Shown: piece by piece, positions 1 through 53,580 of the stretch
Layout: each line of letters begins with the position of its first letter
How positions within the stretch are numbered: the stretch's first letter is position 1
IMG/VR virus record: IMGVR_UViG_3300028275_000007
Reading direction: 5' to 3' (one strand)
DNA from: a virus
Taxonomy: Duplodnaviria; Caudoviricetes
DNA: 64,000 nt
Translations under genes and position numbers: made by a program
The notes under the pieces: generated by a model
The model's database searches: none
What the model was told of the DNA's origin: nothing
Seen by the model: the letters and a program-made list of their open reading frames with translations, nothing else

Positions 1-29
1 AATGTATCCGTAAAAAGGAAAGATTGAGG

Positions 30-58
30 TTGATTCTTCCAGAGCGTTCTGCTAATAT
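30..58 (+). promoter_or_regulatory. sigma70-type promoter
   Basis: TTGATT-N17-TAATAT upstream of CDS 112. Confidence 0.6.
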
Positions 59-111
59 TTAAGAACGCTGAAGAACAAGTAATCAGCTATATTAACTTAA
101 AAGGAAACAAA

Positions 112-384
112 ATGAAACGCATTTCTAAAGACACCAAGACTTTCAAGGTCTTCAACGCACTTTACAATGGTGCAAAACTTACCCAATCCGAAGCAACTAA
201 GCGTTTCGGCGTAGGTAACTTGGCTGCTGAAGCAAGCCGCATTCGTCAGCATGGTTACGCTGTTTATGCCAACACTCGTGTTGCTGGCAACGGTGTGACT
301 GTTACCGAATACGAGTTGGGCCAACCAAGCCGTGAGATCGTAGCACTTGGCTACAAAGCTCGCGCAATGGGTATCACTCTTTAA
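112..384 (+). CDS. winged-helix/HTH-like phage protein, probably highly expressed
   Basis: 90 aa ORF; AAGGA RBS; HTH-like segment LTQSEATKRFGVGNLAAEASRIR; biased codons (cgt, gct, ggt). Confidence 0.75.
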   Translation: MKRISKDTKTFKVFNALYNGAKLTQSEATKRFGVGNLAAEASRIRQHGYAVYANTRVAGNGVTVTEYELGQPSREIVALGYKARAMGITL

Positions 385-407
385 GAGTCGCTCCTAAAGT
401 AAACGAT

Positions 408-422
408 CCGATTCGCTCCCGG
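408..422 (+). repeat. 15-nt repeat CCGATTCGCTCCCGG, copy 1 (CCG/CGG stem, ATTCGCTCC loop) in a 3' UTR
   Basis: Exact match to 6555-6569. Confidence 0.9.
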
Positions 423-434
423 GGACTTTCTTTG

Positions 435-461
435 AGCCGCTACTACAGCGGCTTTTCTTTT
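435..461 (+). terminator. Rho-independent terminator
   Basis: AGCCGCT-actac-AGCGGCT followed by TTTCTTTT. Confidence 0.8.
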
Positions 462-468
462 GGCTGGA

Positions 469-499
469 TGTTGCAAAAATGCCACACCGGCCGGCACTC
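469..499 (+). repeat. bipartite element TGTTGC-N6-GCCACA-N4-CCGGCACTC
   Basis: Inverted counterpart at 3683-3713. Confidence 0.7.
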
Positions 500-509
500 T
501 CCAAACCGG

Positions 510-538
510 TTGACAACTTGGGCGATCAGCTATATAAT
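510..538 (+). promoter_or_regulatory. sigma70 early promoter
   Basis: TTGACA-N17-TATAAT. Confidence 0.9.
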
Positions 539-565
539 AGAGACAGTTAGACAACGGAGCGAAGA

Positions 566-1207
566 ATGCAATTCACAGCAGATCAAGTATGGGGCCTGGC
601 TGTTAGGGCTGATGTTCAAAATGGCGGCTACTGCAAAGAGCCAGTCTATGCTGCTACTGCCACCCACGGGATAGACTACAACACCGTGATCAAGCAACCA
701 AACAAGGTCTTGGTCAAGCAATGGCTCCGCGACAATGTGCAGCCTACAGCAGAAGAGATCGCTCAGGGACAGCAATATCGCGCACAGATCAACACCTTCA
801 CCATGAAGCTGCTGACTGGGAAGATCACAGACTTCGAGCAGACTGCTCTCAAGATTGCCCAAAAGGACGAGTTCACGGGCCGTGATATGTTGGACTTCGC
901 CATTGTCAGCTGCTTGCCCCAGTCAGCTCGCATGGAGCAATCCCGGACGGAGATGAAACGAGAACTGTTCCAAAGTGAGCAACTCCCGGGCGCTGTAGGG
1001 GATACTGTTGTGATCTCTCTGACTGTAATACGTTCGCGTTACAATCCTGAATACAACAAGTTCAAGATCTACGCCCGTGCAGGTGAGTCATTTGTGGACT
1101 TTTGGTTCTCACGTGCTGTAGAAGGTGAACTGCGGGTGAAGGCCAAGATCAAACAGCATCGTGGCGATAAAACAACAGCCCTAAATTATGTGAAAATCAT
1201 CAGTTGA
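566..1207 (+). CDS. hypothetical protein, possible C-terminal OB-fold
   Basis: 213 aa ORF with promoter and GGAGCGAA RBS; beta-rich C-terminus ending TALNYVKI. Confidence 0.75.
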   Translation: MQFTADQVWGLAVRADVQNGGYCKEPVYAATATHGIDYNTVIKQPNKVLVKQWLRDNVQPTAEEIAQGQQYRAQINTFTMKLLTGKITDFEQTALKIAQKDEFTGRDMLDFAIVSCLPQSARMEQSRTEMKRELFQSEQLPGAVGDTVVISLTVIRSRYNPEYNKFKIYARAGESFVDFWFSRAVEGELRVKAKIKQHRGDKTTALNYVKIIS

Positions 1208-1232
1208 CAGGTTGGGCACCTGGTGCTACAAT
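1204..1232 (+). promoter_or_regulatory. sigma70 early promoter
   Basis: TTGACA-N17-TACAAT. Confidence 0.85.
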
Positions 1233-1281
1233 AATGATACTGAGAGAGTAATTGTTTTAACTGTTTTTTAAGCGAGGTCTT

Positions 1282-2367
1282 ATGTCAAAGCAAGTAGATG
1301 TTTCCGTTCGCCAAGTTGGTCCTAAAAACGCCAAGAAGGCAATTCGTAAGGCGGTCAATGTTCGCCGTCCAGTGTTCCTGTGGGGTCCTCCAGGCATTGG
1401 TAAATCCGATCTCGTCAAGCAGATCGGTGAAGACGCAGGTCGTGAGGTCATCGACGTCCGCCTAGCACTTTGGGAGCCCACCGACATCAAGGGTATTCCT
1501 TATTACAATGCCGATCAAGGCAAAATGACTTGGGCTCCTCCTGCAGAACTGCCTGTGGACCCAGATAGCAAGGCAATCATCTTCTTGGATGAATTGAACT
1601 CTGCTCCTCCTGCTGTTCAGGCCGCGGCCTATCAGTTGATTCTGAACCGTCGTGTTGGTACCTACGAACTGCCTAAGGGTGTTGACGTAGTCGCCGCTGG
1701 TAACCGTGAAGGTGACCGTGGTGTTACCTACCGTATGCCTGCTCCGCTGGCTAACCGTTTCGTTCACTTGGAAATGAAAGTGGACTTTGATGACTGGCAA
1801 GACTGGGCTACCTTGAACAAGGTGCATCCAGATGTCGTAGGTTATGTAGGCTTTGCCAAGCAAGACCTGTATGACTTCGATCCTAAGAGCCCTAGCAAGT
1901 CATTTGCTACTCCTCGTTCTTGGATGTTCGTTTCTGACCTGCTCAGCGACGACGATGTTGACAACGAGACTTTGGCTACCCTGATTGCGGGTGCCGTTGG
2001 TGACGGTCTGAGCAATAAGTTTATGGCTCACCGTAAGATCGCAGGCAAACTGCCTAAGGCAGAAGACATTTTGGATGGCAAGGTCAAGGACCTGCAGATC
2101 AAAGAAGTGTCTGCGATGTATTCGTTGACTGTTTCACTCTGCTACGAGTTGAAAGACCGTGCTGAGAAGAAGGTCAAGGACTGGGACGGTATGGCAGATA
2201 ACTTCTTTGCCTATATGATGGCTAACTTCCCAACAGAGTTGGTTGTTATGGGTGCAAAGACTGCTCTTACTAACTACGACCTGCCCCTGGACGCTACTAA
2301 GATGAAGTCGTTCGACGAGTTCCACAAGCGTTTCGGCAAGTATGTTCTTTCAGCAATGGAGAATTAA
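1282..2367 (+). CDS. MoxR-family AAA+ ATPase
   Basis: Walker A GPPGIGKS, Walker B IIFLDE, AAGN sensor, PLANRF arginine finger; adjacent vWA gene. Confidence 0.9.
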   Translation: MSKQVDVSVRQVGPKNAKKAIRKAVNVRRPVFLWGPPGIGKSDLVKQIGEDAGREVIDVRLALWEPTDIKGIPYYNADQGKMTWAPPAELPVDPDSKAIIFLDELNSAPPAVQAAAYQLILNRRVGTYELPKGVDVVAAGNREGDRGVTYRMPAPLANRFVHLEMKVDFDDWQDWATLNKVHPDVVGYVGFAKQDLYDFDPKSPSKSFATPRSWMFVSDLLSDDDVDNETLATLIAGAVGDGLSNKFMAHRKIAGKLPKAEDILDGKVKDLQIKEVSAMYSLTVSLCYELKDRAEKKVKDWDGMADNFFAYMMANFPTELVVMGAKTALTNYDLPLDATKMKSFDEFHKRFGKYVLSAMEN

Positions 2368-2384
2368 GACCTCGCCCATTGCGG

Positions 2385-2415
2385 GGGTGTTGTAGAAATA
2401 CAACACCCTTTTTTT
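2385..2415 (+). terminator. Rho-independent terminator that also contains the palindrome TGTTGT-N6-ACAACA
   Basis: GGGTGTTGT-agaaat-ACAACACCC followed by T7. Confidence 0.8.
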
Positions 2416-2419
2416 ACGG

Positions 2420-2448
2420 TTGACGCATTGGATTTCCGGTGCTATAAT
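2420..2448 (+). promoter_or_regulatory. sigma70 early promoter
   Basis: TTGACG-N17-TATAAT. Confidence 0.85.
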
Positions 2449-2473
2449 ATATACATACTAAGGAGAGCGACTT

Positions 2474-3679
2474 ATGGATCCAATCGTTGAGAAACTAACT
2501 ACTGCACGAGTAGGCCTGCTTTTGAAAGCACCCTTCTTCGGCAATATGGCCACCCGTATGCGTTTGATGGACGCTTCAGACTGGTGCCCTACCGCGGCAA
2601 CTAACGGCCGTGACTTTATGTATAACAAGGACTTCATTAACAAACTGTCTGTTAAGAAGTTAGAGTTCCTGCTGGCACACGAGATCTGCCACTGCGTTTT
2701 TGATCACTTTGGTCGCGTAGGTTCACGTGATCGTATGCTGTCTAACATCGCACAGGACTATGCCGTAAACCAAATCCTTGTAGACGAACGCATCGGTGAG
2801 AAGATCACCGAGGTTAAGATCTGCTACGATCCCAAGTATCGTGGTATGGCTTGGGAAGAAATCTACGATCAATTGTATGAACAAGCAGAGAAGATCCCTA
2901 TGGATCAACTGCTGAAGCAATTGGGTGACCTTTTGGACGAGCACATTAAAGAAGAAGAAGGTGCTGGTAGCCCTGGCGACAAGACCAAAGACGGCAAAGA
3001 GAAGCCTACGCTCAGTAAGGAAGAAGCTGAGAAACTGCGTCAAGAGATCAAAGAGGCTATGATCCAAAGTGCCGCGGCCGCTGGTGCAGGTAAGACTCCT
3101 GCGGGCATTATGCGTATGATCAAGACTATGACTGAGCCTAAAATGGACTGGCGCCAATTGGTTCAGCAAGAGATCCAATCTATTGTGCGTAATGACTACT
3201 CATTCGCTCGCTACAATCGTAAGAGCCAACACTCAGGTGCGGTGCTTCCTGGTATGAAAGAAGCAACTACCATTGACGTGGCTATTGCAATCGATATGTC
3301 GGGTTCGATCGGTGAAGAGGATGCAACTGTATTCCTTTCTGAGATCAAAGGCATTATGGATCAATACGAGGACTTCAAGATCAACCTGTGGTGTTTTGAC
3401 ACAGAGATCTACAATCACCAAAGCATCAGCCACGACAACGCTGAAGACTTGGTTGAGTATGAACCTCAAGGTGGCGGTGGCACAGACTTCGATGTCAACT
3501 TTACCTTTATGGAAGAGAATGACATTCGCCCTAAGAAGTTCATTATGTTCACAGACGGCTATCCCTGCGGTAGTTGGGGTCCTGAGGACTACTGCGACAC
3601 AATCTTTATCGTTAAAGGTAACACATCTGCTCAAGCACCCTTTGGTCAGACTGTTATCTACGAAAAGGAAACGGGCTAA
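2474..3679 (+). CDS. DUF2201-type metallopeptidase plus vWA-domain protein (MoxR partner)
   Basis: HEICH (HExxH) motif; MIDAS DMSGS, GGGTDF, FTDG. Confidence 0.9.
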   Translation: MDPIVEKLTTARVGLLLKAPFFGNMATRMRLMDASDWCPTAATNGRDFMYNKDFINKLSVKKLEFLLAHEICHCVFDHFGRVGSRDRMLSNIAQDYAVNQILVDERIGEKITEVKICYDPKYRGMAWEEIYDQLYEQAEKIPMDQLLKQLGDLLDEHIKEEEGAGSPGDKTKDGKEKPTLSKEEAEKLRQEIKEAMIQSAAAAGAGKTPAGIMRMIKTMTEPKMDWRQLVQQEIQSIVRNDYSFARYNRKSQHSGAVLPGMKEATTIDVAIAIDMSGSIGEEDATVFLSEIKGIMDQYEDFKINLWCFDTEIYNHQSISHDNAEDLVEYEPQGGGGTDFDVNFTFMEENDIRPKKFIMFTDGYPCGSWGPEDYCDTIFIVKGNTSAQAPFGQTVIYEKETG

Positions 3680-3682
3680 CCG

Positions 3683-3713
3683 GAGTGCCGGGGGTTGTGG
3701 CTAAAAAGCCACA
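3683..3713 (-). repeat. bipartite element TGTGGC-N6-GCCACA-N4-CCGGCACTC (inverted copy)
   Basis: Reverse complement matches 469-499 in both arms and N4 spacing. Confidence 0.7.
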
Positions 3714-3759
3714 ACTTCCTAAGTGGCCCCGCTGCTACGTGTGTGCGTGAATCTAGGTC

Positions 3760-3788
3760 TTGACAGATAGGTAGATTGGTTGTATAAT
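3760..3788 (+). promoter_or_regulatory. sigma70 early promoter
   Basis: TTGACA-N17-TATAAT. Confidence 0.9.
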
Positions 3789-3820
3789 ATAGATATCGTA
3801 ACAAAGTAAGGAGTGATAAA

Positions 3821-3952
3821 ATGCTTAAATTCTTGTTAGGAGTATTTTTAACATTGGCTGTCCTGTACCCTGCTGTTACTAAGACCATCGTTGGTAATGC
3901 TGTTGATACCACCCACACGGTTGTAACTGGAGTTATGGAGAATGCTAAATGA
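3821..3952 (+). CDS. small membrane/secreted protein (43 aa, not in ORF track)
   Basis: AAGGAG RBS; MLKFLLGVFLTLAVLYPAV hydrophobic N-terminus. Confidence 0.7.
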   Translation: MLKFLLGVFLTLAVLYPAVTKTIVGNAVDTTHTVVTGVMENAK

Positions 3953-4125
3953 GTAAAGTCGCAGATCTTGCCTATGATATCGAGCAACTGTATATCGAAG
4001 GTCATTCGCCTAAGATGATTGCTCTCATGTTGGAGTGCCCCACAGAGATGGTCTATGATTGGATCGCCGGTAACGGGCTAACCACAGACGATTCCTACGA
4101 TCCGTTTGAGACTGTAAATTCGTGA
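3949..4125 (+). CDS. hypothetical protein (58 aa, HTH-like, not in ORF track)
   Basis: ATGA overlap with upstream gene; MSKVADLAYDIEQLYIEGHSPKMIALMLECPTEMVYDWI. Confidence 0.7.
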   Translation: MSKVADLAYDIEQLYIEGHSPKMIALMLECPTEMVYDWIAGNGLTTDDSYDPFETVNS

Positions 4126-4388
4126 GCAAATTAGAATACTACGCCCGCCCCCTTGTAGCCTTTGATCCAAGGAACAAGATGCACAGACGCTACTACAACC
4201 AATTCCTAGAGCATATGAGTTGGGGTCACTGTCCGGTTCGGTTCATCTGCCCGGAATCTAACGGTTCGGATTTGGTCAAAATGATCCAAACAGAGCTGCT
4301 CAAATACTATGTTGAGAAAGAGTTTAAGGTCAAGAAGAAACCCGCCAAACTCAAAGGTTATCCACATATCGCTAAAAAAACTGGTTGA
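4122..4388 (+). CDS. hypothetical protein
   Basis: 88 aa; GTGA overlap with upstream stop. Confidence 0.7.
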   Translation: MSKLEYYARPLVAFDPRNKMHRRYYNQFLEHMSWGHCPVRFICPESNGSDLVKMIQTELLKYYVEKEFKVKKKPAKLKGYPHIAKKTG

Positions 4389-4413
4389 CACTTTGGCTGA
4401 TCCTTGCTATAAT
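4385..4413 (+). promoter_or_regulatory. sigma70 early promoter
   Basis: TTGACA-N17-TATAAT. Confidence 0.9.
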
Positions 4414-4435
4414 TGACACATAGTTAGGAGAGCGA

Positions 4436-4576
4436 ATGGAATACACCGTGATTTACCCCAATGGCAACTCCCAGAAGTTCTACGTTCGGGCTGTAGCGGA
4501 AATGTACGCCACAATCAACGGCGGCCGTGTTGTAGGAAAACCTGAGTTGAAATTGGTTGACAAATTGGCTGCTTGA
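4436..4576 (+). CDS. hypothetical protein (46 aa, not in ORF track)
   Basis: Own promoter; AGGAGAGCGA RBS; MEYTVIYPNGNSQKFYV. Confidence 0.7.
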   Translation: MEYTVIYPNGNSQKFYVRAVAEMYATINGGRVVGKPELKLVDKLAA

Positions 4577-4585
4577 TCATACAAT
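4557..4585 (+). promoter_or_regulatory. sigma70 early promoter
   Basis: TTGACA-N17-TACAAT. Confidence 0.85.
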
Positions 4586-4608
4586 AGAACTATGATAAGG
4601 AGCGAACG

Positions 4609-4857
4609 ATGATAACAGAAAAACAGCGTGTTGTAAATGCCCTAAAGGGTTGGCAGTTCGTGCGTGGAACCCATGGTTGCTTGTATGATCGTGGATCCGC
4701 AGACTCCTACTACGGTAGGGCACGTGATCCTCACTACGGTGGAGTGGGAGGCGATTCCGGCGCCCGAGTCTCGGTCAACGACGAGGCTTCAGTGGCTGAA
4801 TACATGGCCGGCTACAACGACAACGAGCGTGATGGTAACAAGAAGGATTGGCGATGA
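4609..4857 (+). CDS. hypothetical phage protein
   Basis: 82 aa; promoter and GGAGCGAA RBS; YDRGSADSYYGR. Confidence 0.75.
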   Translation: MITEKQRVVNALKGWQFVRGTHGCLYDRGSADSYYGRARDPHYGGVGGDSGARVSVNDEASVAEYMAGYNDNERDGNKKDWR

Positions 4858-5051
4858 CCCCTACGGAATTTCAATACATTCAACGAGCCGTCAAGGCCTT
4901 GGAAACACCCATGAGCCTTCCAGAGAGGATTAAGGTGGAACGCACTATGGCCCAGATTCTGAGTCGCTCCGCTGACACTTTGGAACAGAATTTGGTTGAC
5001 AACATCGAAGATCGGTTGTATAATACTAATACTGAAACAGAAGGAGCGTGA
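4854..5051 (+). CDS. hypothetical protein
   Basis: ATGA overlap with the 4857 stop. Confidence 0.55.
   Translation: MTPTEFQYIQRAVKALETPMSLPERIKVERTMAQILSRSADTLEQNLVDNIEDRLYNTNTETEGA
4996..5024 (+). promoter_or_regulatory. sigma70 early promoter
   Basis: TTGACA-N17-TATAAT. Confidence 0.9.
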
Positions 5052-5052
5052 T

Positions 5053-5676
5053 ATGCCAAATTGGTGCAACAACACATTGACCCTTGAGCACGATGATCCA
5101 GCAATGATTACTCGTGCCAAAGAAGCACTGGATCGTGGAGAGTTCCTGCAGGAGTTCATTCCTGTGCCCAAAGAACTCACAGAAACCATGGCTGGTTCCT
5201 ACGGGGACGGAGACAAGCAGGCCGCATTGGAAGCACAGATGAAGTCCAATGTTGAAAAGTTTGGCTACAGCAACTGGTATGACTACTGCGTCGGCGAGTG
5301 GGGAACCAAATGGGATGTAGGTGGCGATGGACAGACTGATATTCACCCTGATGGTAAGACGCTGTTCACTACCTTTGATTCAGCATGGTCTCCACCCGTG
5401 AATGCTTATCAGAAGTTAGAGCAACTAGGCTTCCGAGTTTCTGCACAGTTCTATGAATCAGGTATGGCTTTTGCTGGTGTATATGAGGACGGCAACTGCG
5501 AGGACTTTAGCCTCGAAGGCATGACTGCTGATGAGATCGAACGGGATTACCCAGAACTAGACGAAGCGTTCTGCATCGCTGAGGCTATCCGTGAGTTCCA
5601 GGAAGAGGAAGAAGAAGAACTCACAGAGTGGATCAAAGATGGTGTTGACAAGAACCTGGAGTTGAAGTCTCTATGA
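5053..5676 (+). CDS. DUF1281/YubB-like ferredoxin-fold protein
   Basis: MPNWCNN start after AAGGAGCG; WYDYCVGEWGTKWD and FDSAWSPP motifs; start moved from 4996 because the promoter lies there. Confidence 0.75.
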   Translation: MPNWCNNTLTLEHDDPAMITRAKEALDRGEFLQEFIPVPKELTETMAGSYGDGDKQAALEAQMKSNVEKFGYSNWYDYCVGEWGTKWDVGGDGQTDIHPDGKTLFTTFDSAWSPPVNAYQKLEQLGFRVSAQFYESGMAFAGVYEDGNCEDFSLEGMTADEIERDYPELDEAFCIAEAIREFQEEEEEELTEWIKDGVDKNLELKSL

Positions 5677-5987
5677 CAATGACTGTGGTCAAAATGGACC
5701 GACGCTATGACGGGCACGATCGCTTCAGTCATAGAGTCGAGTTCACAGGCTATCAGCCACATGGCCAGAAGCAGACTCGAATTGCACAATGGGTTCGAGC
5801 TCGCAACTGGCTGTGGCAACAGTTTGGTCCTTCAGGAGAATTGTTCTGCGCCCGGCCCACTTACTTCGATGGACATCAGCCGGTTTGGGCCTGGGATGCA
5901 GAGAAATCATCGCTGTATCTGAGCAAGGAAGCCTACACGATGTTTATGTTACGCAAGGAATTTTGGGAAAATGTCGAGAACCTTTAA
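5673..5987 (+). CDS. hypothetical protein
   Basis: 104 aa; ATGA overlap. Confidence 0.7.
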   Translation: MTMTVVKMDRRYDGHDRFSHRVEFTGYQPHGQKQTRIAQWVRARNWLWQQFGPSGELFCARPTYFDGHQPVWAWDAEKSSLYLSKEAYTMFMLRKEFWENVENL

Positions 5988-6177
5988 CTATCGATTAGAA
6001 GTCATCTGTGGAGGTTCAGGCACAGCGGACGAGGTCCGGGTCGAGGAAATGCTCGATTTGGCCTTTCAGGATCTGGTCTATGACGACGAGTTTATCGCCG
6101 CCCTAGACGAGAAAGAGTCTGTGACCATTCGAGTGTCTAAATTGGACAACCGAATGGTTGACAGAAGTGGCACTTGA
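5971..6177 (+). CDS. hypothetical acidic protein
   Basis: 68 aa; GGGA upstream. Confidence 0.6.
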   Translation: MSRTFNYRLEVICGGSGTADEVRVEEMLDLAFQDLVYDDEFIAALDEKESVTIRVSKLDNRMVDRSGT

Positions 6178-6186
6178 TGCTACATT
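6158..6186 (+). promoter_or_regulatory. sigma70 early promoter
   Basis: TTGACA-N17-TACATT. Confidence 0.8.
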
Positions 6187-6240
6187 TATAACATACCAAA
6201 AAGGTATATTTTTTAACACACACAGAAAGAGGTAATTTAA

Positions 6241-6552
6241 ATGGCTACAGATAAGAAGTTTGCGGTTGCTGGTGTTTCCACTCAAGCAGGTAAGACCAAG
6301 GTTCGTTTCGCTAATGACGTGATGCGCATCAAGATCCTTGCCAAGAATGGTCACACTGACATCAACCTCGTGGATCTTCCACGTGAAATGACCAAGGCTG
6401 AGATTGGTGCCTATATGGTCGAAACTGGCTTTGGCAAGGGCAATGCTGCTGTAGAAGCTGCTGTTGCTTACATTGTCAAGAAGAACCCTTTGGCCACAGC
6501 TGCCAAGGTAAGTAAGACTACTGTCGCGAAGACAGAAGCTATCGCCGAATAA
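6241..6552 (+). CDS. basic Ala/Lys-rich phage protein, possible nucleic-acid binder
   Basis: 103 aa; GAGGT RBS; strong codon bias; K/A/T-rich tail. Confidence 0.8.
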   Translation: MATDKKFAVAGVSTQAGKTKVRFANDVMRIKILAKNGHTDINLVDLPREMTKAEIGAYMVETGFGKGNAAVEAAVAYIVKKNPLATAAKVSKTTVAKTEAIAE

Positions 6553-6554
6553 AC

Positions 6555-6569
6555 CCGATTCGCTCCCGG
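6555..6569 (+). repeat. 15-nt repeat CCGATTCGCTCCCGG, copy 2, in a 3' UTR
   Basis: Exact match to 408-422; 2 nt after the stop; CCGAT...ATCGG extended stem. Confidence 0.9.
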
Positions 6570-6585
6570 TATCGGCGGTCTTAAC

Positions 6586-6620
6586 ACCCTACTGTATACA
6601 CGTACAGTAGGGTTTTTTTT
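6586..6620 (+). terminator. Rho-independent terminator
   Basis: ACCCTACTGTA-tacacg-TACAGTAGGGT followed by T run. Confidence 0.9.
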
Positions 6621-6622
6621 GG

Positions 6623-6651
6623 TTGACAACTGGCGTTTTTGAATATATAAT
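6623..6651 (+). promoter_or_regulatory. sigma70 early promoter
   Basis: TTGACA-N17-TATAAT. Confidence 0.9.
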
Positions 6652-6670
6652 TAAACAATAGGAGAGCGCG

Positions 6671-7063
6671 ATGGAACTTATTGATTGGATCACACTAGCT
6701 ATATTCTTTGCCCTGGGTTGGTTCCTAGGTAACAGGGCTGCGACCCGCATTCATCTCACTGCTTTCTCCATGATCCTCAAGGAGTTGGGCGTGAAGAATC
6801 AGGATTTGATTCGTGTGGCTCGTGCCAATGGCCTCACTATCCCTGAACCTGAGCATGATGAACCTGAGTTAGATCACATCGAAATCAAGGTGGAAAAGCA
6901 CGGTGAAATGCTCTATGCTTTCCGCAAGGACAACGATCGGTTCCTAGGCCAAGGCACTTCACGTGAAGAACTCATCAATCGTATGGCTGAGTCACTGCGC
7001 AATGTTCGCTGTACCGTAGTGGAAGGCAATGAGTATATGATCAAGGATAGCCCTACAAGCTAA
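6671..7063 (+). CDS. hypothetical protein with N-terminal transmembrane segment
   Basis: 130 aa; WITLAIFFALGWFLG; GGAGAGCG RBS. Confidence 0.75.
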   Translation: MELIDWITLAIFFALGWFLGNRAATRIHLTAFSMILKELGVKNQDLIRVARANGLTIPEPEHDEPELDHIEIKVEKHGEMLYAFRKDNDRFLGQGTSREELINRMAESLRNVRCTVVEGNEYMIKDSPTS

Positions 7064-7081
7064 AGGGTTATTACAAATTGG

Positions 7082-7110
7082 TTGACAGATTGGCTGTTTG
7101 GGCATACAAT
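7082..7110 (+). promoter_or_regulatory. sigma70 early promoter
   Basis: TTGACA-N17-TACAAT. Confidence 0.85.
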
Positions 7111-7135
7111 ATACACATACTAACAAGGAGCGAAG

Positions 7136-7318
7136 ATGTTAACAAACAAGCAAAACCAGCAACTGCTCAGGGCTGTGGAACTACTGCAGGAAGCAGACGC
7201 ATTGGTACAGTCAGCAATGGGCGCCAGCGACGAATGCTACTACATCCACACACAAATTGAAAACTCAGCGGATGACGTGCTGGACTTTATACAAGAGAAC
7301 ACTGAAGAGGCAGCGTAA
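7136..7318 (+). CDS. hypothetical helical protein
   Basis: 60 aa; AAGGAGCGAA RBS. Confidence 0.75.
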   Translation: MLTNKQNQQLLRAVELLQEADALVQSAMGASDECYYIHTQIENSADDVLDFIQENTEEAA

Positions 7319-7629
7319 TGGAAGCCCTACAGGAAACCACTGGGGGGCAGTTTCCTGCCCACACTTACCTACTCGATGGCACAACGCTGGTTGCCTATAT
7401 CAAGCAAGGGGAAACTACGCCATTCTATTTCAAGTCAGGAATCAAAGGCTTCGACAAGCGAGGCCGGAAGTTCCAAACCGTAACACCAAACCCATTCAAA
7501 GTAAAGGCATCAAATGACACACGCACAGTCCAAGGCTCAAACGGCAAAACTTACACAGTCAACGACGCAGAGAAAACCTGTACCTGTCCAGGATTTACAT
7601 TTAGAGGTGCCTGCAAACACCTGGGCTAA
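7318..7629 (+). CDS. SWIM zinc-finger protein
   Basis: YTV...CTCPGF....ACKH. Confidence 0.8.
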   Translation: MEALQETTGGQFPAHTYLLDGTTLVAYIKQGETTPFYFKSGIKGFDKRGRKFQTVTPNPFKVKASNDTRTVQGSNGKTYTVNDAEKTCTCPGFTFRGACKHLG

Positions 7630-7634
7630 TATGG

Positions 7635-7663
7635 TTGACAGATTGGTAAAAGGCTGTTAAAAT
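7635..7663 (+). promoter_or_regulatory. sigma70 promoter, probably leaderless transcript
   Basis: TTGACA-N17-TAAAAT-N6-ATG. Confidence 0.8.
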
Positions 7664-7669
7664 ACACAT

Positions 7670-7894
7670 ATGATAAACAACTTACTCCAATGGTCCGGTA
7701 CTGCATTCCTCTTAGGAATGTATGTGGTTATGAACTTCTTCCACACTCTGCATCCTCTGCAGATCGTCTTGGGACTCTGCGGTGGCCTGTGCTATTTTGC
7801 TTGGAGCTACCGTGTGGCAAATAAGCCACAGATGATCGTTAACCTAGCGGGCATATCCGTATGCGCCGCAGGGTTATTCCACTATTTTGGTTGA
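7670..7894 (+). CDS. small multi-pass membrane protein
   Basis: 74 aa; three hydrophobic segments. Confidence 0.7.
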   Translation: MINNLLQWSGTAFLLGMYVVMNFFHTLHPLQIVLGLCGGLCYFAWSYRVANKPQMIVNLAGISVCAAGLFHYFG

Positions 7895-7919
7895 CAGTTT
7901 GGGCTAAAGATCCTATACT
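7891..7919 (+). promoter_or_regulatory. sigma70 early promoter
   Basis: TTGACA-N17-TATACT. Confidence 0.85.
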
Positions 7920-7946
7920 ATAAACACTGAAACAAAGGAGCGAACA

Positions 7947-8060
7947 ATGATCAAACTCATCGGATGGATTGCAGTTACCTGGGCTCTGTTCCACTTTGGC
8001 ATTGCTCAGGCCATCTTAATCACGGCCGCTGCTGCGGGAACCATAGTCTTCGGAGGTTGA
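7947..8060 (+). CDS. small hydrophobic protein (37 aa, not in ORF track)
   Basis: AAGGAGCGAA RBS; MIKLIGWIAVTWALFHFGIAQAILITAAAAGTIVFGG. Confidence 0.65.
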   Translation: MIKLIGWIAVTWALFHFGIAQAILITAAAAGTIVFGG

Positions 8061-8061
8061 T

Positions 8062-8322
8062 GTGTCAGGTTGGGTAGTCTACGATCAGCGTTCGGGTCAT
8101 ATGCAGAAGTATTACAAGCTGGCTGCAACTGCGAAAAGGATCGTCACACAGCACAACACAGAACGCGAGTATGATTGGGGCGATGGCTCAGGCAGCTACA
8201 CCTATCGTCCTCAGAGTCTTTGGGCCTGCTGCTCCTATGCAGACTACGAAGGGATTCTAATGGGTCTGCGTGGGGAAGCGTTTAAGATGTGGCAGTTTGT
8301 GCGCAATAACCCTAGAGGTTGA
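8062..8322 (+). CDS. hypothetical protein
   Basis: GGAGG RBS with GTG start. Confidence 0.65.
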   Translation: MSGWVVYDQRSGHMQKYYKLAATAKRIVTQHNTEREYDWGDGSGSYTYRPQSLWACCSYADYEGILMGLRGEAFKMWQFVRNNPRG

Positions 8323-8338
8323 CAGGTCTTCCAAAAGA
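8309..8338 (+). repeat. 30-bp direct repeat, copy 1 (promoter-containing)
   Basis: ACCCTAGAGGTTGACAGGTCTTCCAAAAGA identical to 8556-8585. Confidence 0.95.
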
Positions 8339-8347
8339 CAGTATAAT
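8319..8347 (+). promoter_or_regulatory. sigma70 early promoter
   Basis: TTGACA-N17-TATAAT. Confidence 0.9.
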
Positions 8348-8379
8348 TGACACATACACAAACAAACAAGGAGCGAAAG

Positions 8380-8553
8380 ATGATCAATCAAGACCTTAGA
8401 GTAATCGCAGGAATCCAAGAACGCCTGGGCCAACTGCCCGTGCTGGAAACCCTGATCTATATCGAAAACAACACTGGCGAGTTCACTATCGCTGAACTGC
8501 GTAGTTTCTACAACGTGATGTCACAATTCCGTGCGCTGTTTGCTGCCGCCTAA
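8380..8553 (+). CDS. hypothetical protein (57 aa)
   Basis: ATG 8380 after AAGGAGCGAA; the track start at 8347 lies in the -10 box. Confidence 0.7.
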   Translation: MINQDLRVIAGIQERLGQLPVLETLIYIENNTGEFTIAELRSFYNVMSQFRALFAAA

Positions 8554-8555
8554 AG

Positions 8556-8585
8556 ACCCTAGAGGTTGACAGGTCTTCCAAAAGA
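8556..8585 (+). repeat. 30-bp direct repeat, copy 2
   Basis: Identical to 8309-8338. Confidence 0.95.
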
Positions 8586-8594
8586 TCGTATAAT
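8566..8594 (+). promoter_or_regulatory. sigma70 early promoter
   Basis: TTGACA-N17-TATAAT. Confidence 0.9.
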
Positions 8595-8623
8595 ACACGC
8601 ATATTAACAAATAGGGAGCGCAA

Positions 8624-8860
8624 ATGAAACACAACGAAGTTCAACTCTACAAGAACATCGGCTCTATCCAGGCAGTCGAGGGTGACGAAGGCCGCTACTA
8701 CTTCTACCGTCACTTTGCCACAGGTAACACCTGCGATGAAGACACCATCAAAGGCGCCAAAGAGATGTTGGATTGGGAAGAAAAGAACTATCAAGAAGTA
8801 CAGGCCGCGATCCGTGTGCTTCAGGGCCGTGGCTATCGTGTGTTCAAAGAAGTGGCCTAA
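8624..8860 (+). CDS. hypothetical protein
   Basis: 78 aa; GGGAGCG RBS. Confidence 0.75.
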   Translation: MKHNEVQLYKNIGSIQAVEGDEGRYYFYRHFATGNTCDEDTIKGAKEMLDWEEKNYQEVQAAIRVLQGRGYRVFKEVA

Positions 8861-8865
8861 ATTGG

Positions 8866-8894
8866 TTGACAAACGGCCAGTTCGATCGTATAAT
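8866..8894 (+). promoter_or_regulatory. sigma70 early promoter
   Basis: TTGACA-N17-TATAAT. Confidence 0.9.
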
Positions 8895-8926
8895 ATACAC
8901 ATACACTAAACAACTAGGAGCTGAAA

Positions 8927-9109
8927 ATGGTTACAGAAGGTCAGGGAATGTTTGTCGTCATAGTAGGACTTGTGATCACTATGTTGGGCACAGGTGGTGT
9001 AGAGAATAGCATCACCAACACAGAGCTGCTACAGGCCCTAGCTGTTGCAGTAACTGGACTAGGTGCAATGTATGCAGGTACACTTATGATCCAGAGGGCT
9101 CAGCAATGA
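8927..9109 (+). CDS. small two-TM membrane protein
   Basis: 60 aa; AGGAGCTGAA RBS; two hydrophobic helices. Confidence 0.7.
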   Translation: MVTEGQGMFVVIVGLVITMLGTGGVENSITNTELLQALAVAVTGLGAMYAGTLMIQRAQQ

Positions 9110-9333
9110 CTATAGAACTACACGGACTTAATCGTCAACAACATCAGATCGCAGACATGATCTGGAGCTGTGAATCGCAAGCAGATGTTGAGCGGCTTAT
9201 ACGGAACCTGCCCCCCGCATATCAAAAGGATGCTGTAGTCATACACGATCTAATGATCGCTGCTGTGATGGATCAACATATGGAGATCACTGAAGATGTT
9301 CGTGCGCTTATTCGTAGCCTTAGCTCTAGCTAA
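9106..9333 (+). CDS. hypothetical protein
   Basis: 75 aa; ATGA overlap. Confidence 0.7.
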   Translation: MTIELHGLNRQQHQIADMIWSCESQADVERLIRNLPPAYQKDAVVIHDLMIAAVMDQHMEITEDVRALIRSLSSS

Positions 9334-9496
9334 TCTAGCTGCCTGTACAGCCTACGATCGTAGAGACGCAGCTTGGTCACGGCCCTATCATCAGAAGTTT
9401 GATCAGATTCCCAATCAACCTGGCGAGGCTCTTCGACGCTGTGGAGGTCAGGTTAGACCTGAACTGAGGACACCGGAGATGACCGACCGGTGCTGA
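9296..9496 (+). CDS. putative small lipoprotein
   Basis: Hydrophobic N-terminus with LAAC lipobox; two further Cys. Confidence 0.55.
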   Translation: MFVRLFVALALANLAACTAYDRRDAAWSRPYHQKFDQIPNQPGEALRRCGGQVRPELRTPEMTDRC

Positions 9497-9658
9497 GGTG
9501 GTGGGGGGTGGCCGGTATAGTGTGTATACTATAGTAGTAGTTTTACTAGCGGTATGGGGTCTAAAATCACCACCCTGAAATGAAAAGTACTCCACCCAAA
9601 TTTTTTGCGCGGCCAAATTTTTGACCTCTAAAACCCTTTTCTTAGTATATACTAGTCT

Positions 9659-10159
9659 ATGCTTTATACACCCAAATATCAACAGATGCTGGTTCAAGAA
9701 CATCTGCGCAGACCCTGGGGCGATGTTGGTCATCGTTACTCTGAACATATCTTAGAGCTTTATCATCAATACTCCTGTGCGCACATCTTGGACTACGGCT
9801 GTGGACAAGCTCTGCTCAGTAAAAAAATCGGCGATCTAGTCCCTGTGGATAACTATGATCCCGGAATCCCAGCTTATTCTACTCTGCCACAACCTAGAGA
9901 TCTCGTAGTCTGCGTAGATGTCTTAGAGCACATAGAACCTCAGTGTATTCACTCAGTCTTGGCACATCTACAGTCTTTGACTCTAAAAGTAGCCTATGTT
10001 AACATATCGTCAGTGCCTGCACGTAGTTCATTCCCTAACGGACAAAATCTTCATCTTATACAAGAACCCCTAGAATGGTGGCTAAGTCAGCTTAGTCAGT
10101 ACTTTACTCTTGGCTCTGTTACTAACAATCTAGTTATATGCCACAGTACGCACTCCTAA
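9659..10159 (+). CDS. class I SAM-dependent methyltransferase
   Basis: ILDYGCGQA motif I; DLVVCVDVLEHIEP. Confidence 0.8.
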   Translation: MLYTPKYQQMLVQEHLRRPWGDVGHRYSEHILELYHQYSCAHILDYGCGQALLSKKIGDLVPVDNYDPGIPAYSTLPQPRDLVVCVDVLEHIEPQCIHSVLAHLQSLTLKVAYVNISSVPARSSFPNGQNLHLIQEPLEWWLSQLSQYFTLGSVTNNLVICHSTHS

Positions 10160-10323
10160 ACTCTGATCCCCAGCTTAGAGAATTCTTTGCTTTTATAGAG
10201 CAACACAGTCTCCGTCACGAAATCCACTTAAATCGTACTCGTGTATGGATTGATTCCAGTCCTATATTAACTGAGTTTTTACTACGGTTTACTTCAGTGT
10301 TTCGTGTTCTAGATGATATATAG
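10138..10323 (+). CDS. hypothetical protein
   Basis: 61 aa ORF in a co-directional run. Confidence 0.55.
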   Translation: MPQYALLNSDPQLREFFAFIEQHSLRHEIHLNRTRVWIDSSPILTEFLLRFTSVFRVLDDI

Positions 10324-10326
10324 TGT

Positions 10327-10527
10327 ATGCAGACATTTAGTCCCCACCCCGATTGGCGCCGAACCTTTGAGTTTACGGCGCAGTATGTATCCACTCTAGA
10401 TCTGTCATTTAAACCGGATCCCATTCTAGCTCATAAGCAGACTCTAGAGTTTGTCATAGATCCTGTTATACACAAGTTCAGTCTCGCCAATGCACAGATT
10501 CATAACTCATCAACATCAGTGGCTTAA
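10327..10527 (+). CDS. hypothetical protein
   Basis: 66 aa ORF in a co-directional run. Confidence 0.5.
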   Translation: MQTFSPHPDWRRTFEFTAQYVSTLDLSFKPDPILAHKQTLEFVIDPVIHKFSLANAQIHNSSTSVA

Positions 10528-28685: not shown

Positions 28686-29410
28686 ATATTGCCAATTAAT
28701 TCTTCAATACTCGTATCAAGGTCATCATCTTCTTTTAGTCCTGCCTTAAAATGAGTAAAATAATCTTTTAGTATGGTTCTTGGCATCGGAGTTTTGTGAA
28801 AGTTAGGATTAATTTCATTCATACCTCCTAATTTTTCTAAATCTTTAATAGTTGCTCCAAGGACTTCACCGTCATAGAATCTTCTTAAATTCTCAGTTAA
28901 TCGATTATCATAATATTCACGATATCTCTTTGAAAATAATGAAAAATTTTGATGAGTTTTGTTTACAACAAAAAAACTTGATTCACAACTGAAATATTCT
29001 TTGTCATTTGCTTCGTGCCATACACCCATAAACGTAGTTAGATCTTTAGACGAACATAAATTTTCTAAAAATTCTCTAGGAACCGCTGTATGTGTTAATA
29101 CATCAGAATCAATCCATATTAATAGATCGCAATCTATGTTTTCCATAGCGTGAATTACAGAATAACCTTTTTTAGAAAAAGTTTTTACTCTTTGTTTAAA
29201 TTTTGTTTTTTGCAAATCAAAATATTCAACAGGAAGTTCTGTAAAAGGAATTTGTATAATACGTGGATCGGGAGTTAATGACATTTCTTCCACGTAACAG
29301 GTTAAATTAATGTCAGTTGGCCAATTTTTTAAAAATGTAGCAACACAATATTTGCCAATTAACTCATAATATTTTTCGTTAAAACTTGTAATAACAGAAA
29401 TCTTTTTCAT
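28661..29410 (-). CDS. GT-A transferase paralog
   Basis: VITSF; FSKKGY; WIDSD; CESSF; YFTHFK. Confidence 0.75.
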   Translation of the reverse strand: MKKISVITSFNEKYYELIGKYCVATFLKNWPTDINLTCYVEEMSLTPDPRIIQIPFTELPVEYFDLQKTKFKQRVKTFSKKGYSVIHAMENIDCDLLIWIDSDVLTHTAVPREFLENLCSSKDLTTFMGVWHEANDKEYFSCESSFFVVNKTHQNFSLFSKRYREYYDNRLTENLRRFYDGEVLGATIKDLEKLGGMNEINPNFHKTPMPRTILKDYFTHFKAGLKEDDDLDTSIEELIGNIQTVPVCQ

Positions 29411-30339
29411 ATAAATTTTTTCATATGGCTCCAGCATTCGCCGGATCTTAGTTCGTCAAAATTCCAATGAAACATGGCTAATCGTTCAAGCCATCTGTCT
29501 CTATAGGGCATTTGTGGATTTTCAATTTGAGATAAATCAGTATTAGCAATTTCTGCGCACTGACTACGGGCAGGATCCATTACAAAAATAGGAACACCTT
29601 CAATCGCTGCTCCTACAGCAGGACTTGAATTATAATTAATTGCTGCCCAACAATCTACTAAATCATCTTCTAAATTTTTATTATAGCTAAGAGTGATTCT
29701 TTTAGAAAATTTAATTTTACATCTACCTAGTCTAGGATTAAGATAATTTATAGCATCTTTATCTCCAGGATGTGGTCGTATAATTATGTGTCGATCGGAA
29801 TATTGTCTTACCTGAGCTATAACATCGTTAGCCCAGTCTTGTACATCAAGATTTCCCATACTCCATCCGCCGTTTCTTTGTAGCAACAACAAAATATGGT
29901 CTCCGTTAGTTCTCCACTCTTTAGGTTGAATTTTTAAATTATGACTAATTTTTTTCCATCGAAATGGATCAATTTCCGTATCACAATAAATTCCTGTATT
30001 AGGAAATATTCCATCAAAACTGTATCTGAGATAATGCAAAGGATTTTCTTTATTTTTATAAAGAAATAAATTGCTGTCAACACCTATTACGTGTCTTTTA
30101 TTTTTAAGTTGTTGTTGAATAACAGTATTTCTTAAGAGTAAATGCTTACCAGTTGGCCGACCGGGAGCGACCCAACCTTGTATAATGGCCACATCCGATG
30201 GTCGATAAGAGTGATCAAGATAGTCGTAGACTATTGATCCTGTTCTTCTAGCACCTTCAGAGAAGTATCTTAAAAGATCAATTTTTTCTTGGCTCTTTTT
30301 GTTTGGTACAGAACCGTGGTATACCGCTACTGTTGTCAT
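29407..30339 (-). CDS. KpsS/KpsC-like GT-B transferase paralog
   Basis: ILLLLQR; IIIRPHP; INYNSSPAVGAAIEGVP. Confidence 0.7.
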   Translation of the reverse strand: MTTVAVYHGSVPNKKSQEKIDLLRYFSEGARRTGSIVYDYLDHSYRPSDVAIIQGWVAPGRPTGKHLLLRNTVIQQQLKNKRHVIGVDSNLFLYKNKENPLHYLRYSFDGIFPNTGIYCDTEIDPFRWKKISHNLKIQPKEWRTNGDHILLLLQRNGGWSMGNLDVQDWANDVIAQVRQYSDRHIIIRPHPGDKDAINYLNPRLGRCKIKFSKRITLSYNKNLEDDLVDCWAAINYNSSPAVGAAIEGVPIFVMDPARSQCAEIANTDLSQIENPQMPYRDRWLERLAMFHWNFDELRSGECWSHMKKFI

Positions 30340-53100: not shown

Positions 53101-53580
53101 CCCGCCAACTACTGTTGGTGCAGATCCATTCCATTCTTGAATACCCCAAGTTGTTGCTTGAGTGTCAATCCACCATTGACCGTTTGTTGGGTTCGCTCCC
53201 GGGGCGTCTACTTGAGCCTCTAGTTCGTCTAAGTTAATATCAGCACGAACGATAAATGCCGCGTTGCTAACACCCAATAAACTATATGCTGCTAATAATC
53301 CGTATTCGTTTCTTTCTGAACCGTGTACAGGAGTCGAACTCGCTGTCTGTTCAAAGAAAGGAACACCGAAGAAATCTGTTAGATCTCTCTGACTGGTTAA
53401 TTTAAATGCCTTACCAGCATTGGCTTTTGTTGTTGCGGACGCGGTACCTGTTCCCGATCCGTTTGCTTTATCTTGCGCTGTAGCTACTACGATAAGAGGA
53501 GTAGTACCAGGTTCTGCTGGTGTATAAAAACTCTCGTCGATAACTGTAACCGCTACGCCCGGTGATTGTAATGTTGCCAT
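50122..53580 (-). CDS. gp18: tail sheath protein with large insertion (1152 aa)
   Basis: LQSPGVAVTVIDES; WFAPAGTRRG; DRINVARL; FEPND; DIAIEPVKAVEFI. Confidence 0.95.
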   Translation of the reverse strand: MATLQSPGVAVTVIDESFYTPAEPGTTPLIVVATAQDKANGSGTGTASATTKANAGKAFKLTSQRDLTDFFGVPFFEQTASSTPVHGSERNEYGLLAAYSLLGVSNAAFIVRADINLDELEAQVDAPGANPTNGQWWIDTQATTWGIQEWNGSAPTVVGGQKFTNKVPLVLTDADTAKISNNAPKTSVGAIGDYAVVFQTVTGDGSFGANEEFARVYFKSAGAPASTGGVDAVDAGQWVLVGSTDWKASWPVASGSAYSGSISGNLYVNNSLIAGGTVATIASNINAAAITGVSAQAINNRLYIYSNGTSAADGDAGDSTGADGAVKLENGTANWSTLGITAGTYLSPALQQTPHTSVPAFKISDNVGTVGGNPTGSVWIKTTEPNNGARWRVKRWSAGTLSWASYEAPIHTSTGAANYYLDRSGGGANISKDSLFVQSNATEAAGFDATPETAEFRVWKRNVSANAVTSITSAVIKDSTLAAGPYSFDLAESLKGQATLDTAVTINFSAAGNSEDADAIATAINAAGFTNIVASVTTVSSTSAKLVISHKLGGDFSLTDGTGSPIGGLFTPYSINTLSGTENLYEAQSAAGYDYLASGWMPLAASNPRFAASGDAPLNEPQDGQMWYNPNFSEVDVMVHNGATWVGYRHASAQYAESATSTRIGYAPLVSASNPYQAGSTQTGDLWISTADMENFPTIYRFNNNLTDIADVSQRWELVDKTDQTTEEGILFADARWNTTGTTNAMSTIEDLLQNNFLDPDAPDPALYPKGMLLWNLRRSGGNVKKYMNGYIDTASDNPRTSTATLAGSAFVSGSGLSMEAYWTDRWVTASGNNEDGSGTFGRHAQRKVVTQALKSVVDTSSEIRDTERRNFNLIACPGYPELMSNLVNLNIDRGITAFVIGDTPLRLAADATSLTTWGTNANLVTDNGDDGIVTYDEYLATYYPNGYTTDLSGAGAVVPASHMMLKTIALSDNVSYPWFAPAGTRRGGITNATAVGYIDAMTGEFQTVALNEGQRDTLYDLKINPIPFFNGVGLVAYGQKTRARNASALDRINVARLVVYLRSQLNKLARPYIFEPNDKITRDEIKQAAESLLLELVGLRAIYDFAVVCDESNNTPSRIDRNELYVDIAIEPVKAVEFIYIPLRVKNTGEI

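Follow-up and report, generated by a model that had tools for sequence, protein, structure and literature searches.

A hairpin loop conserved in early mRNA 3'UTRs of a jumbo phage clade is complementary to the early ribosome-binding site consensus and may act as an antisense element

Several described systems use an RNA loop, or a protein, against the region at which translation starts. In the temperate phages P1/P7 and P22, the c4 RNA acts on icd-ant and the sar RNA on ant; exposed loops of these RNAs pair with the ribosome-binding site (RBS) and stop translation. Plasmid antisense systems such as CopA/CopT and RNAI/RNAII operate through kissing loops with a YUNR U-turn. Proteins can recognise early ribosome-binding regions as well, and in phage T4 the endoribonuclease RegB (specific for GGAG) and the repressor RegA shut off early translation. 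A different use of early RNA hairpins is seen in phage lambda, with the boxB hairpins of nutL and nutR, the latter located between cro and tR1. To our knowledge, very little has been described of regulatory RNAs in lytic phages, and early shut-off has so far been ascribed to proteins (e.g., T4 RegA and RegB). In enterobacteria, 3'UTR-derived small RNAs (sRNAs; e.g., CpxQ, SroC, NarS, GlnZ) carry, within an mRNA 3'UTR, a seed that regulates other mRNAs, and sRNAs of the CpxQ type share the Rho-independent terminator and the U-tail of that mRNA (PMC7038943, PMC9731577).

The element discussed here was found in a window of 64,000 nucleotides, i.e., the whole stretch of DNA that was analysed, which represents the minus strand of a 110,417-bp IMG/VR virus record (IMGVR_UViG_3300028275_000007; completeness estimate ~31%). 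The record encodes a T4-type large terminase, a tail sheath protein, and a DnaB-type helicase; its nearest cultured relatives belong to the jumbo Pseudomonas phage PA5oct group, with a TerL identity of only 55%, and the phage DNA is found in riverine metagenomes and metatranscriptomes. The early region comprises window positions 1–10 kb together with 6 kb upstream in the record and contains ~20 perfect or near-perfect TTGACA-17-TATAAT promoters, one before each of its small genes. The G+C content is 46–49% in window positions 1–10000 versus 33–44% in 14000–64000. GenBank phage records contain no DNA near-identical to window positions 1–8000. In the syntenic region of PA5oct, neither GGAGCG nor CGCTCC occurs and the RBSs are AT-rich and weak; hence, the system is not open to study there. 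The region is present in four riverine RNA runs as short assembled contigs broken at strain variants, which show presence in RNA libraries only, transcript ends, strand, and level being unreadable from them.

The 15-mer CCGATTCGCTCCCGG is present in two exact copies, 6.1 kb apart and both on the plus strand, at 408–422 (copy 1) and 6555–6569 (copy 2). Neither the window nor the whole record holds a further match with up to two mismatches, and 0.01 matches are expected in a shuffled window. Both copies lie between a stop codon and an intrinsic terminator, copy 1 behind the stop codon (382–384) of a helix-turn-helix (HTH) gene and copy 2 beginning 2 nt past the TAA stop (6550–6552) of a gene for a 103-aa protein. 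The identity of the two copies and the position of copy 2 between stop and terminator had been noted in the sequence-only reading and are confirmed, and the genome-wide search it had proposed yielded no copies at random positions. It had also called the flanks unrelated, which holds: no alignment extends beyond the 15-mer, the sole likeness being a TAAAC upstream of both copies that is offset by 3 nt at copy 1. The features around the two copies are as follows.

6241–6552, plus strand: coding sequence of the 103-aa early protein, the bearer of copy 2 (from the ORF list)
6541–6548, plus strand: 5' arm of the basal stem of copy 2, ATCGCCGA / AUCGCCGA, in the last codons of the coding sequence (from the fold)
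6555–6569, plus strand: copy 2, the 15-mer CCGATTCGCTCCCGG, with the mini-stem CCG 6555–6557 / CGG 6567–6569
6558–6566, plus strand: 9-nt loop of copy 2, ATTCGCTCC, unpaired in folds
6572–6579, plus strand: 3' arm of the basal stem, TCGGCGGT / UCGGCGGU, pairing with 6541–6548 (from the fold)
6586–6620, plus strand: terminator after copy 2, with a 12-bp stem (6586–6613), a 4-nt loop, and a seven-T run (6614–6620)
6623–6651, plus strand: promoter of the next gene, a perfect sigma-70-type TTGACA-17-TATAAT
387–395, plus strand: extra anti-RBS word GTCGCTCCT, the complement of AGGAGCGAC, in the 3'UTR of copy 1
396–400 and 425–429, plus strand: outer stem of copy 1, AAAGT / ACTTT
408–422, plus strand: copy 1 of the 15-mer, with its loop at 411–419, in the 3'UTR of the HTH gene (112–384)
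434–463, plus strand: terminator of copy 1 (434–454 in the narrower delimitation)
510–538: perfect TTGACA-17-TATAAT promoter after the copy 1 terminator

The terminator at 6586–6620 is the 3' end of the mRNA that bears copy 2, and the stretch 6550–6622 folds with a z-score of -3.7 against shuffles; given the perfect promoter right behind this terminator, read-through is not needed. Extra anti-RBS words like GTCGCTCCT occur two to three times in the HTH 3'UTR of relatives. A CGCTCC at ~4965 was dropped as a UTR element, lying inside a 66-codon ORF (4854–5051).

The 103-aa gene is served by its own promoter (6158–6186) and, as had been read from the sequence, by a GAGGT RBS (6229–6233) that lacks GAGCG, while the HTH gene uses AAGGAAA. 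The protein has no match in Pfam or PHROG and no tblastn match in cultured phages, its atlas look-alikes all score below 0.9, and its AF2 model (pLDDT 72.6) has no fold match in the PDB at E ≤0.001. Its codons had been described as biased like those of the HTH gene (gene 112). This applies to glycine (GGY only) and arginine (CGY only), together with the highest T3, but not to the E. coli-style Fop, which is an unremarkable 0.53 versus 0.73 for gene 112, on a reference that may not be that of the host.

With regard to structure, the earlier drawing of a hairpin closed by CCGAT/ATCGG was partly wrong: these arms can pair here, but they do so in this genome only, are not kept in orthologues, and, at -6.8 kcal/mol, do no better than shuffles (z +0.19); hence, they were rejected as the conserved hairpin. 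In the conserved fold, a covarying basal stem is topped by a CCG/CGG mini-stem carrying the open 9-nt loop AUUCGCUCC, which is unpaired in computed folds. At copy 2, the basal stem encloses both the stop codon and the 15-mer. The arms of this stem change together in orthologues (GCTGA/TCAGC, ACCGC/GCGGT, ACTGC/GCAGT, AGCTTA/TAAGCT, CCCAG/CTGGG), and in a test of 95 distinct terminator-associated contexts, the mean pairing energy of the flanks was -13.5 kcal/mol with the own partner versus -8.0 with swapped partners (p = 6e-24). The element comes in three arrangements. Type A follows the HTH gene and has an outer stem (e.g., CAAAGAC/GTCTTTG; here AAAGT/ACTTT) and then a terminator; in type B, located behind an ATPase gene, the terminator hairpin has the 15-mer as its own loop, and the 3'UTR often contains two to three such hairpins; type C, to which copy 2 belongs, is found behind the 103-aa gene. 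Even the mini-stem can be substituted with the loop kept, by CAG/CUG, UCAG/CUGA, UCG/CGA, or CCUAGG/CCUAGG, and at 385–395 the loop word is also present in unstructured form, GAGUCGCUCCU. From this replacement of the stem and the unstructured GAGUCGCUCCU, it follows that what stays constant is (A)UUCGCUCC in single-stranded form, its invariant core being UCGCUCC.

No Rfam 15 family matches the window at its gathering score, and at E ≤1 the only match in positions 1–9000 is an unrelated weak one at 7377–7466; ARAGORN finds no tRNA in the window. A tRNA T-arm has a 5-bp stem and a 7-nt T-loop, UUCRANY, with A58. The loop UUCGCUC failed this comparison, having a C at the A58 position.

Conservation of the element was assessed at 37 loci with relatives of the 103-aa protein (identity 44–84%). 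In ~28 of these, the motif is found, exact or near-exact, 0–5 nt past the stop codon; the proteins at these motif-bearing loci are 63–84% identical, and the terminator stems downstream are unrelated. Behind the HTH gene, the exact 15-mer is present in 36 of 54 distinct orthologous 3'UTRs and a CGCTC-core variant in 8 more. Taken over the orthologues of these two genes, the 15-mer remains exact while the proteins are 63–96% identical and the terminator stems differ. Of five larger clade records, three (G011, G013, and G014) carry two exact copies each, on one strand and 5.9–7.5 kb apart; G012 and G015 have one exact copy and one variant at other spacings. In a scan of IMG/VR, the 15-mer was recovered from at least 117 contigs versus 13 for a reversed control, an enrichment of at least 9-fold; about 78 of the 108 distinct 15-mer contexts adjoin an intrinsic terminator, and all 15 positions are invariant in ~80 different contexts. 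Judged by this comparison, it is the 15-mer itself that is under selection, not a recent duplication, in line with the proposal of the sequence-only reading; the same two sites are kept in orthologues, while coding sequence and terminators diverge. On the same comparative grounds, copy 2 occupies one of the two sites at which this clade conserves an RNA element not described before; our literature searches returned no account of anything like it.

The target side of the comparison concerns the early RBSs. The core UCGCUCC is the exact complement of GGAGCGA, and UUCGCUCC pairs with GGAGCGAA at 556, 4599, 7127, 7937, and 8370. The initiation regions in question are listed below.

556–563, plus strand: GGAGCGAA RBS of the gene at 566–1207, a presumed target
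4599, 5043, 7127, 7937, 8370, and 8615, plus strand: RBSs of other presumed targets
2463, 4428, and 6662, plus strand: RBSs of the GAGAGCG variant

On the plus strand of positions 1–10,500, all ten GGAGCG/GAGAGCG words sit 6–11 nt before a start codon, and 14 of the 18 GGAGCG words on this strand of the whole record are early RBSs. In 696 distinct promoter-proximal leaders from the clade, the four positions after GGAG are mostly C (88%), G (75%), A (63%), and A (61%), and the early RBS consensus of the whole clade, as read from these leaders, is GGAGCGAA(U). The canonical anti-Shine-Dalgarno sequence cannot account for an extension of the RBS past GGAG; since the extension is beyond its reach, another reason is needed. 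The calculated duplex energy with the loop is -12.4 kcal/mol for 8 bp and -13.4 kcal/mol for 9 bp. The only core variant, CGCUCU (relatives L120–L124), keeps pairing by means of a G-U pair and exactly matches the AGAGCGAA RBS class. In some relatives (L254, L258, and L265), the loop is kept and most nearby RBSs are GGAGCA or GGAGCT, which leaves only 5 bp. Pairing in cis, within read-through transcripts, was rejected as a general explanation because GGAGCGAA at 556 fits copy 1, while GAGAGCGCG at 6662 fits copy 2 poorly. As another partner of the loop, we considered the 16S rRNA helix 24 word GGGAGCGAA, which is presumably confined to some phyla.

Loop and RBS word occur together across lineages, although the number of independent lineages behind this co-occurrence is small. 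The loop is absent from both 3'UTRs in distant relatives and in a sister clade, which use other RBS words (AGAGGGYAA, GGAAYA). The sister-clade contig L217 (IMGVR_UViG_3300044701_000569, 357,559 bp) has the same gene order, including the 103-aa gene, the HTH gene, and perfect promoters, with AGAGGGYAA as early RBS; its two 3'UTRs contain neither a CGCTCC loop nor a loop complementary to AGAGGGYAA. L217 being without a loop, the relation is a presence/absence correlation and not a compensatory change. The same contig has tRNA-like sequences at 3050–3210.

From the positions, structure, and conservation of the element and its complementarity to the RBS word, we infer pairing in the cell, and we see roughly an even chance that the loop is a trans-acting antisense device, on early mRNAs or on fragments of their 3'UTRs, directed at GGAGCGA-type initiation regions, with repression of these regions as the most plausible outcome. 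The 15-mer would form the apical module of a conserved hairpin in early mRNA 3'UTRs, in which a variable basal stem and the 3-bp CCG/CGG mini-stem would present AUUCGCUCC single-stranded just upstream of the terminator. The loop would pair in trans with the GGAGCGA(A/U) regions of most early genes, over 8–9 bp and at approximately -12 to -13 kcal/mol, and this pairing would occlude the Shine-Dalgarno region. Accumulation of the two abundant bearer mRNAs, or of stable 3' fragments possibly processed from them and ending at the terminator, would then lower GGAGCGA-led translation, the bearers themselves using other RBSs (GAGGT and AAGGAAA). Speaking against antisense action, bearers and targets are both early transcripts, and the timing logic is an assumption.

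The sequence-only reading had already regarded the two mRNAs as redundant sources of one regulatory seed. The comparison fits this idea in that two separately promoted, unrelated early genes carry the loop clade-wide and its core is complementary to the RBS, but the hairpin drawn for it was wrong. The attendant idea that bearers avoid the target RBS applies to the two genes in the window, whose orthologues are consistently without GAGCG at their own RBS, but not to a third bearer found in relatives (L116, L059, L056, L174, L047, L006, and L181). This gene, for an AAA-type ATPase with the C-terminus VAEVTCMRR, is followed by a 3'UTR with two to three AUUCGCUCC hairpins, and its RBS reads GGAGCGA; thus, bearers do not always avoid the target word, and a cis 5'–3' pairing would be possible there. 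The ATPase homologue in the genome studied here (window -1260 to -409) is followed by overlapping genes and has no hairpin-bearing UTR.

Compared with the enterobacterial sRNAs of the CpxQ type, both copies share the location in a 3'UTR and a terminator with U-tail in common with the mRNA; furthermore, the 15-mer is better conserved than the surrounding UTR and coding sequence, and the loop is complementary to initiation regions of presumed targets. The differences are that the seed is placed in a hairpin loop and not in a 5' single-stranded stretch, that one seed is repeated behind two or three unrelated genes, and that the presumed targets make up a whole early-gene family with one RBS word. 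What is proposed here resembles c4 and sar in that an RNA of phage origin, either a small RNA or a part processed from a transcript, would direct a loop against a ribosome-binding region. However, c4 and sar hit one neighbouring target each and serve the immunity of temperate phages, while the present element belongs to a jumbo phage of lytic type, in which it occupies 3'UTRs that are not linked to its targets and has matches in at least a dozen initiation regions. In contrast to the proteins RegA and RegB, the proposed effector is an RNA, with GGAGCGA(A) as its recognition word. As in CopA/CopT and RNAI/RNAII, recognition would use a hairpin loop of 7–9 nt, and the UUCG that follows the first base of the loop fits YUNR as in CopA/CopT. 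In those plasmids, the two RNAs are encoded in cis, by the two strands of a single locus; here, the modules are short, portable, and unlinked.

A second type of partner was found in related contigs, where the exact 15-nt complement of the element, CCGGGAGCGAATCGG, lies 6–16 nt past a TAAATA late-type promoter at 20 loci. At most of them, a start codon follows after 0–2 nt; it belongs to one of four genes that are unrelated to each other, encoding a 93-aa membrane protein, a CsgF-like secreted protein, a 133-aa secreted protein, and a 63-aa protein; at a few loci, there is a second GGAGCGAA RBS before the start codon, or no ORF behind. One record, G006 (265,680 bp), contains both a terminator-loop copy and a full-complement leader. 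In these relatives, some late genes have a CCGGGAGCGAAUCGG leader with which the element could form base pairs along its entire 15 nt. The 15-bp loop–leader duplex is calculated at about -31 kcal/mol and would explain the conservation of all 15 positions. The 15-nt complement in late leaders can, in turn, form a mirror CCG/CGG hairpin, which makes a loop–loop kiss possible. Among orthologues of the 93-aa gene, leaders are highly variable and the full complement is sporadic; in L340, this leader has only GGAGCGA, with a type-C hairpin on the same contig. The 110 kb of the genome studied here contain no full complement and none of the four leader genes. When the CCTAGG-stem variant was sought in leader orientation, all ten matches proved to be sense hairpins in the HTH 3'UTR. 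The CsgF-like protein (curli assembly), an unexpected gene for a phage, has a late promoter and the 15-nt complement leader in L026, L029, L049, L172, L165, L169, and L175; its likeness to CsgF was judged by eye from the N-terminus.

Extending the antisense idea to these leaders, one may conceive of a protein-free 'address label' circuit across a large, as yet uncultured group of jumbo phages, in which 3'UTR loops would titrate or silence GGAGCGAA RBSs together with CCGGGAGCGAAUCGG leaders and thereby time the early-to-late switch; we regard this as a tentative and rather doubtful proposition. Two or three strongly expressed early mRNAs would each display the exact complement in their 3'UTR, in the form of a portable hairpin-loop module. 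As the 3' ends of these mRNAs built up, their loops would form kissing pairs with the leaders; late genes without a leader would escape this control.

The main rival, raised already in the sequence-only reading and in our view less likely, is a protein-binding hairpin: a phage or host protein would recognise CCG-AUUCGCUCC-CGG and thereby stabilise, localise, or control the bearer mRNA, or would itself be titrated, as CsrA is by RNAs of the CsrB/RsmZ type, the RBS complementarity being secondary. The invariance of all 15 positions in ~80 contexts goes beyond what a seed of 8–9 nt needs and is typical also of protein-binding sites; this counts at once against antisense action, and the two to three tandem hairpins in some 3'UTRs, as in sponge RNAs, as well as the persistence of the loop where nearby RBSs match poorly, point in the same direction. 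However, the stem is wholly replaceable with the loop kept (CCUAGG/CCUAGG, UCAG/CUGA), the unstructured GAGUCGCUCCU is found too, and a protein site explains neither the exact complementarity between the invariant core and the RBS consensus nor the recurrence of the 15-nt complement before four unrelated late genes. Autoregulation by the encoded protein is unlikely in view of three unrelated bearer proteins, and, as a weak point, the modelled 103-aa protein seems to have no recognisable RNA-binding fold.

Clearly less probable still is a purely cis-acting 3'-end element for termination, stability, or processing, with the RBS match as a by-product of an anti-SD-like CUCC core. The element is always beside or inside an intrinsic terminator hairpin, the type C structure contains the stop codon, and one assembled metatranscriptome contig, from run X11, passes into Illumina adapter directly behind position 422, where copy 1 stops; this could reflect a recurrent RNA end but, coming from a single contig, is a weak hint. 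Elements of stability or termination, however, need no invariant 9-nt loop; a third strong early terminator (2383–2410) has no such element; a specified 8-mer falls inside a 15-mer by chance with a frequency of only ~1e-4; and the leader copies of the full complement are left unexplained.

We consider it most improbable that the hairpins are nut/boxB-like antitermination sites that load an antiterminator on RNA polymerase before the terminator. As with lambda nut, two early transcripts contain an identical 15-nt hairpin; its flanks are unrelated, and in each transcript it stands between a small early gene, in one case an HTH gene, and a terminator directly behind; furthermore, CACTCTTTAA, 24 nt upstream of copy 1, may be counted in favour, as we take it to be boxA-like. 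Yet CACTCTTTAA forms the end of the HTH coding sequence, has no counterpart at copy 2, and is missing from many orthologues, so that, other than in lambda, there is no conserved boxA; nor is there a GNRA-type pentaloop, and the loop complements the RBS word. A perfect promoter right after each terminator leaves read-through without obvious purpose, and in relatives the 15-mer is often the terminator hairpin loop itself, which is not a nut-like position. A functionless chance repeat or recent local duplication, for which the mere two copies in the record and the shortness of the 15-mer could be cited, has a negligible likelihood against 0.01 matches expected in shuffles, the unrelated flanks, the same two positions kept in many diverged genomes, and the enrichment over the reversed control.

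If the antisense pairing is real, an mRNA 3'UTR can serve as a global translational switch within a virus, and the loop and its RBS word would offer a small, portable tag/anti-tag pair with which translation could be controlled synthetically. The candidate is well defined, comprising a short, sharply conserved loop and a target set with a common complementary word, with natural variants in hundreds of environmental genomes and with sense and antisense modules that have moved between genes. As an RNA motif that is unregistered to date, the element could enter family databases and mark this phage clade. The corrected structure, the complement in late leaders, and the exceptions are what the comparison of relatives has added.

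In addition, many late genes of this genome start in a distinct way, with TAAATA followed after exactly 5 nt by ATG (minus strand: 55439, 49421, 47039, 45336, 43738, 14857, and 11520; plus strand: 34631). The corresponding mRNAs probably have no leader or almost none. At some early genes, ATG stands 6 nt behind TATAAT or TAAAAT (e.g., with the promoter at 7635). There seem to be three classes of initiation regions in this phage: GGAGCGAA, canonical Shine-Dalgarno, and leaderless.

Finally, partial copies of the element are present inside late coding regions. TTCGCTCCCGGGGCGTCT, at ~53190–53210 on the plus strand, is antisense to the sheath gene, and 18 nt of it match the type-A consensus of relatives; GTCGCTCCCGGTCGG, at ~30160–30180 on the minus strand, lies in sense orientation within the ORF 29407–30339. 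The word TCGCTCCCGG occurs 4 times in 110 kb versus ~0.2 expected.
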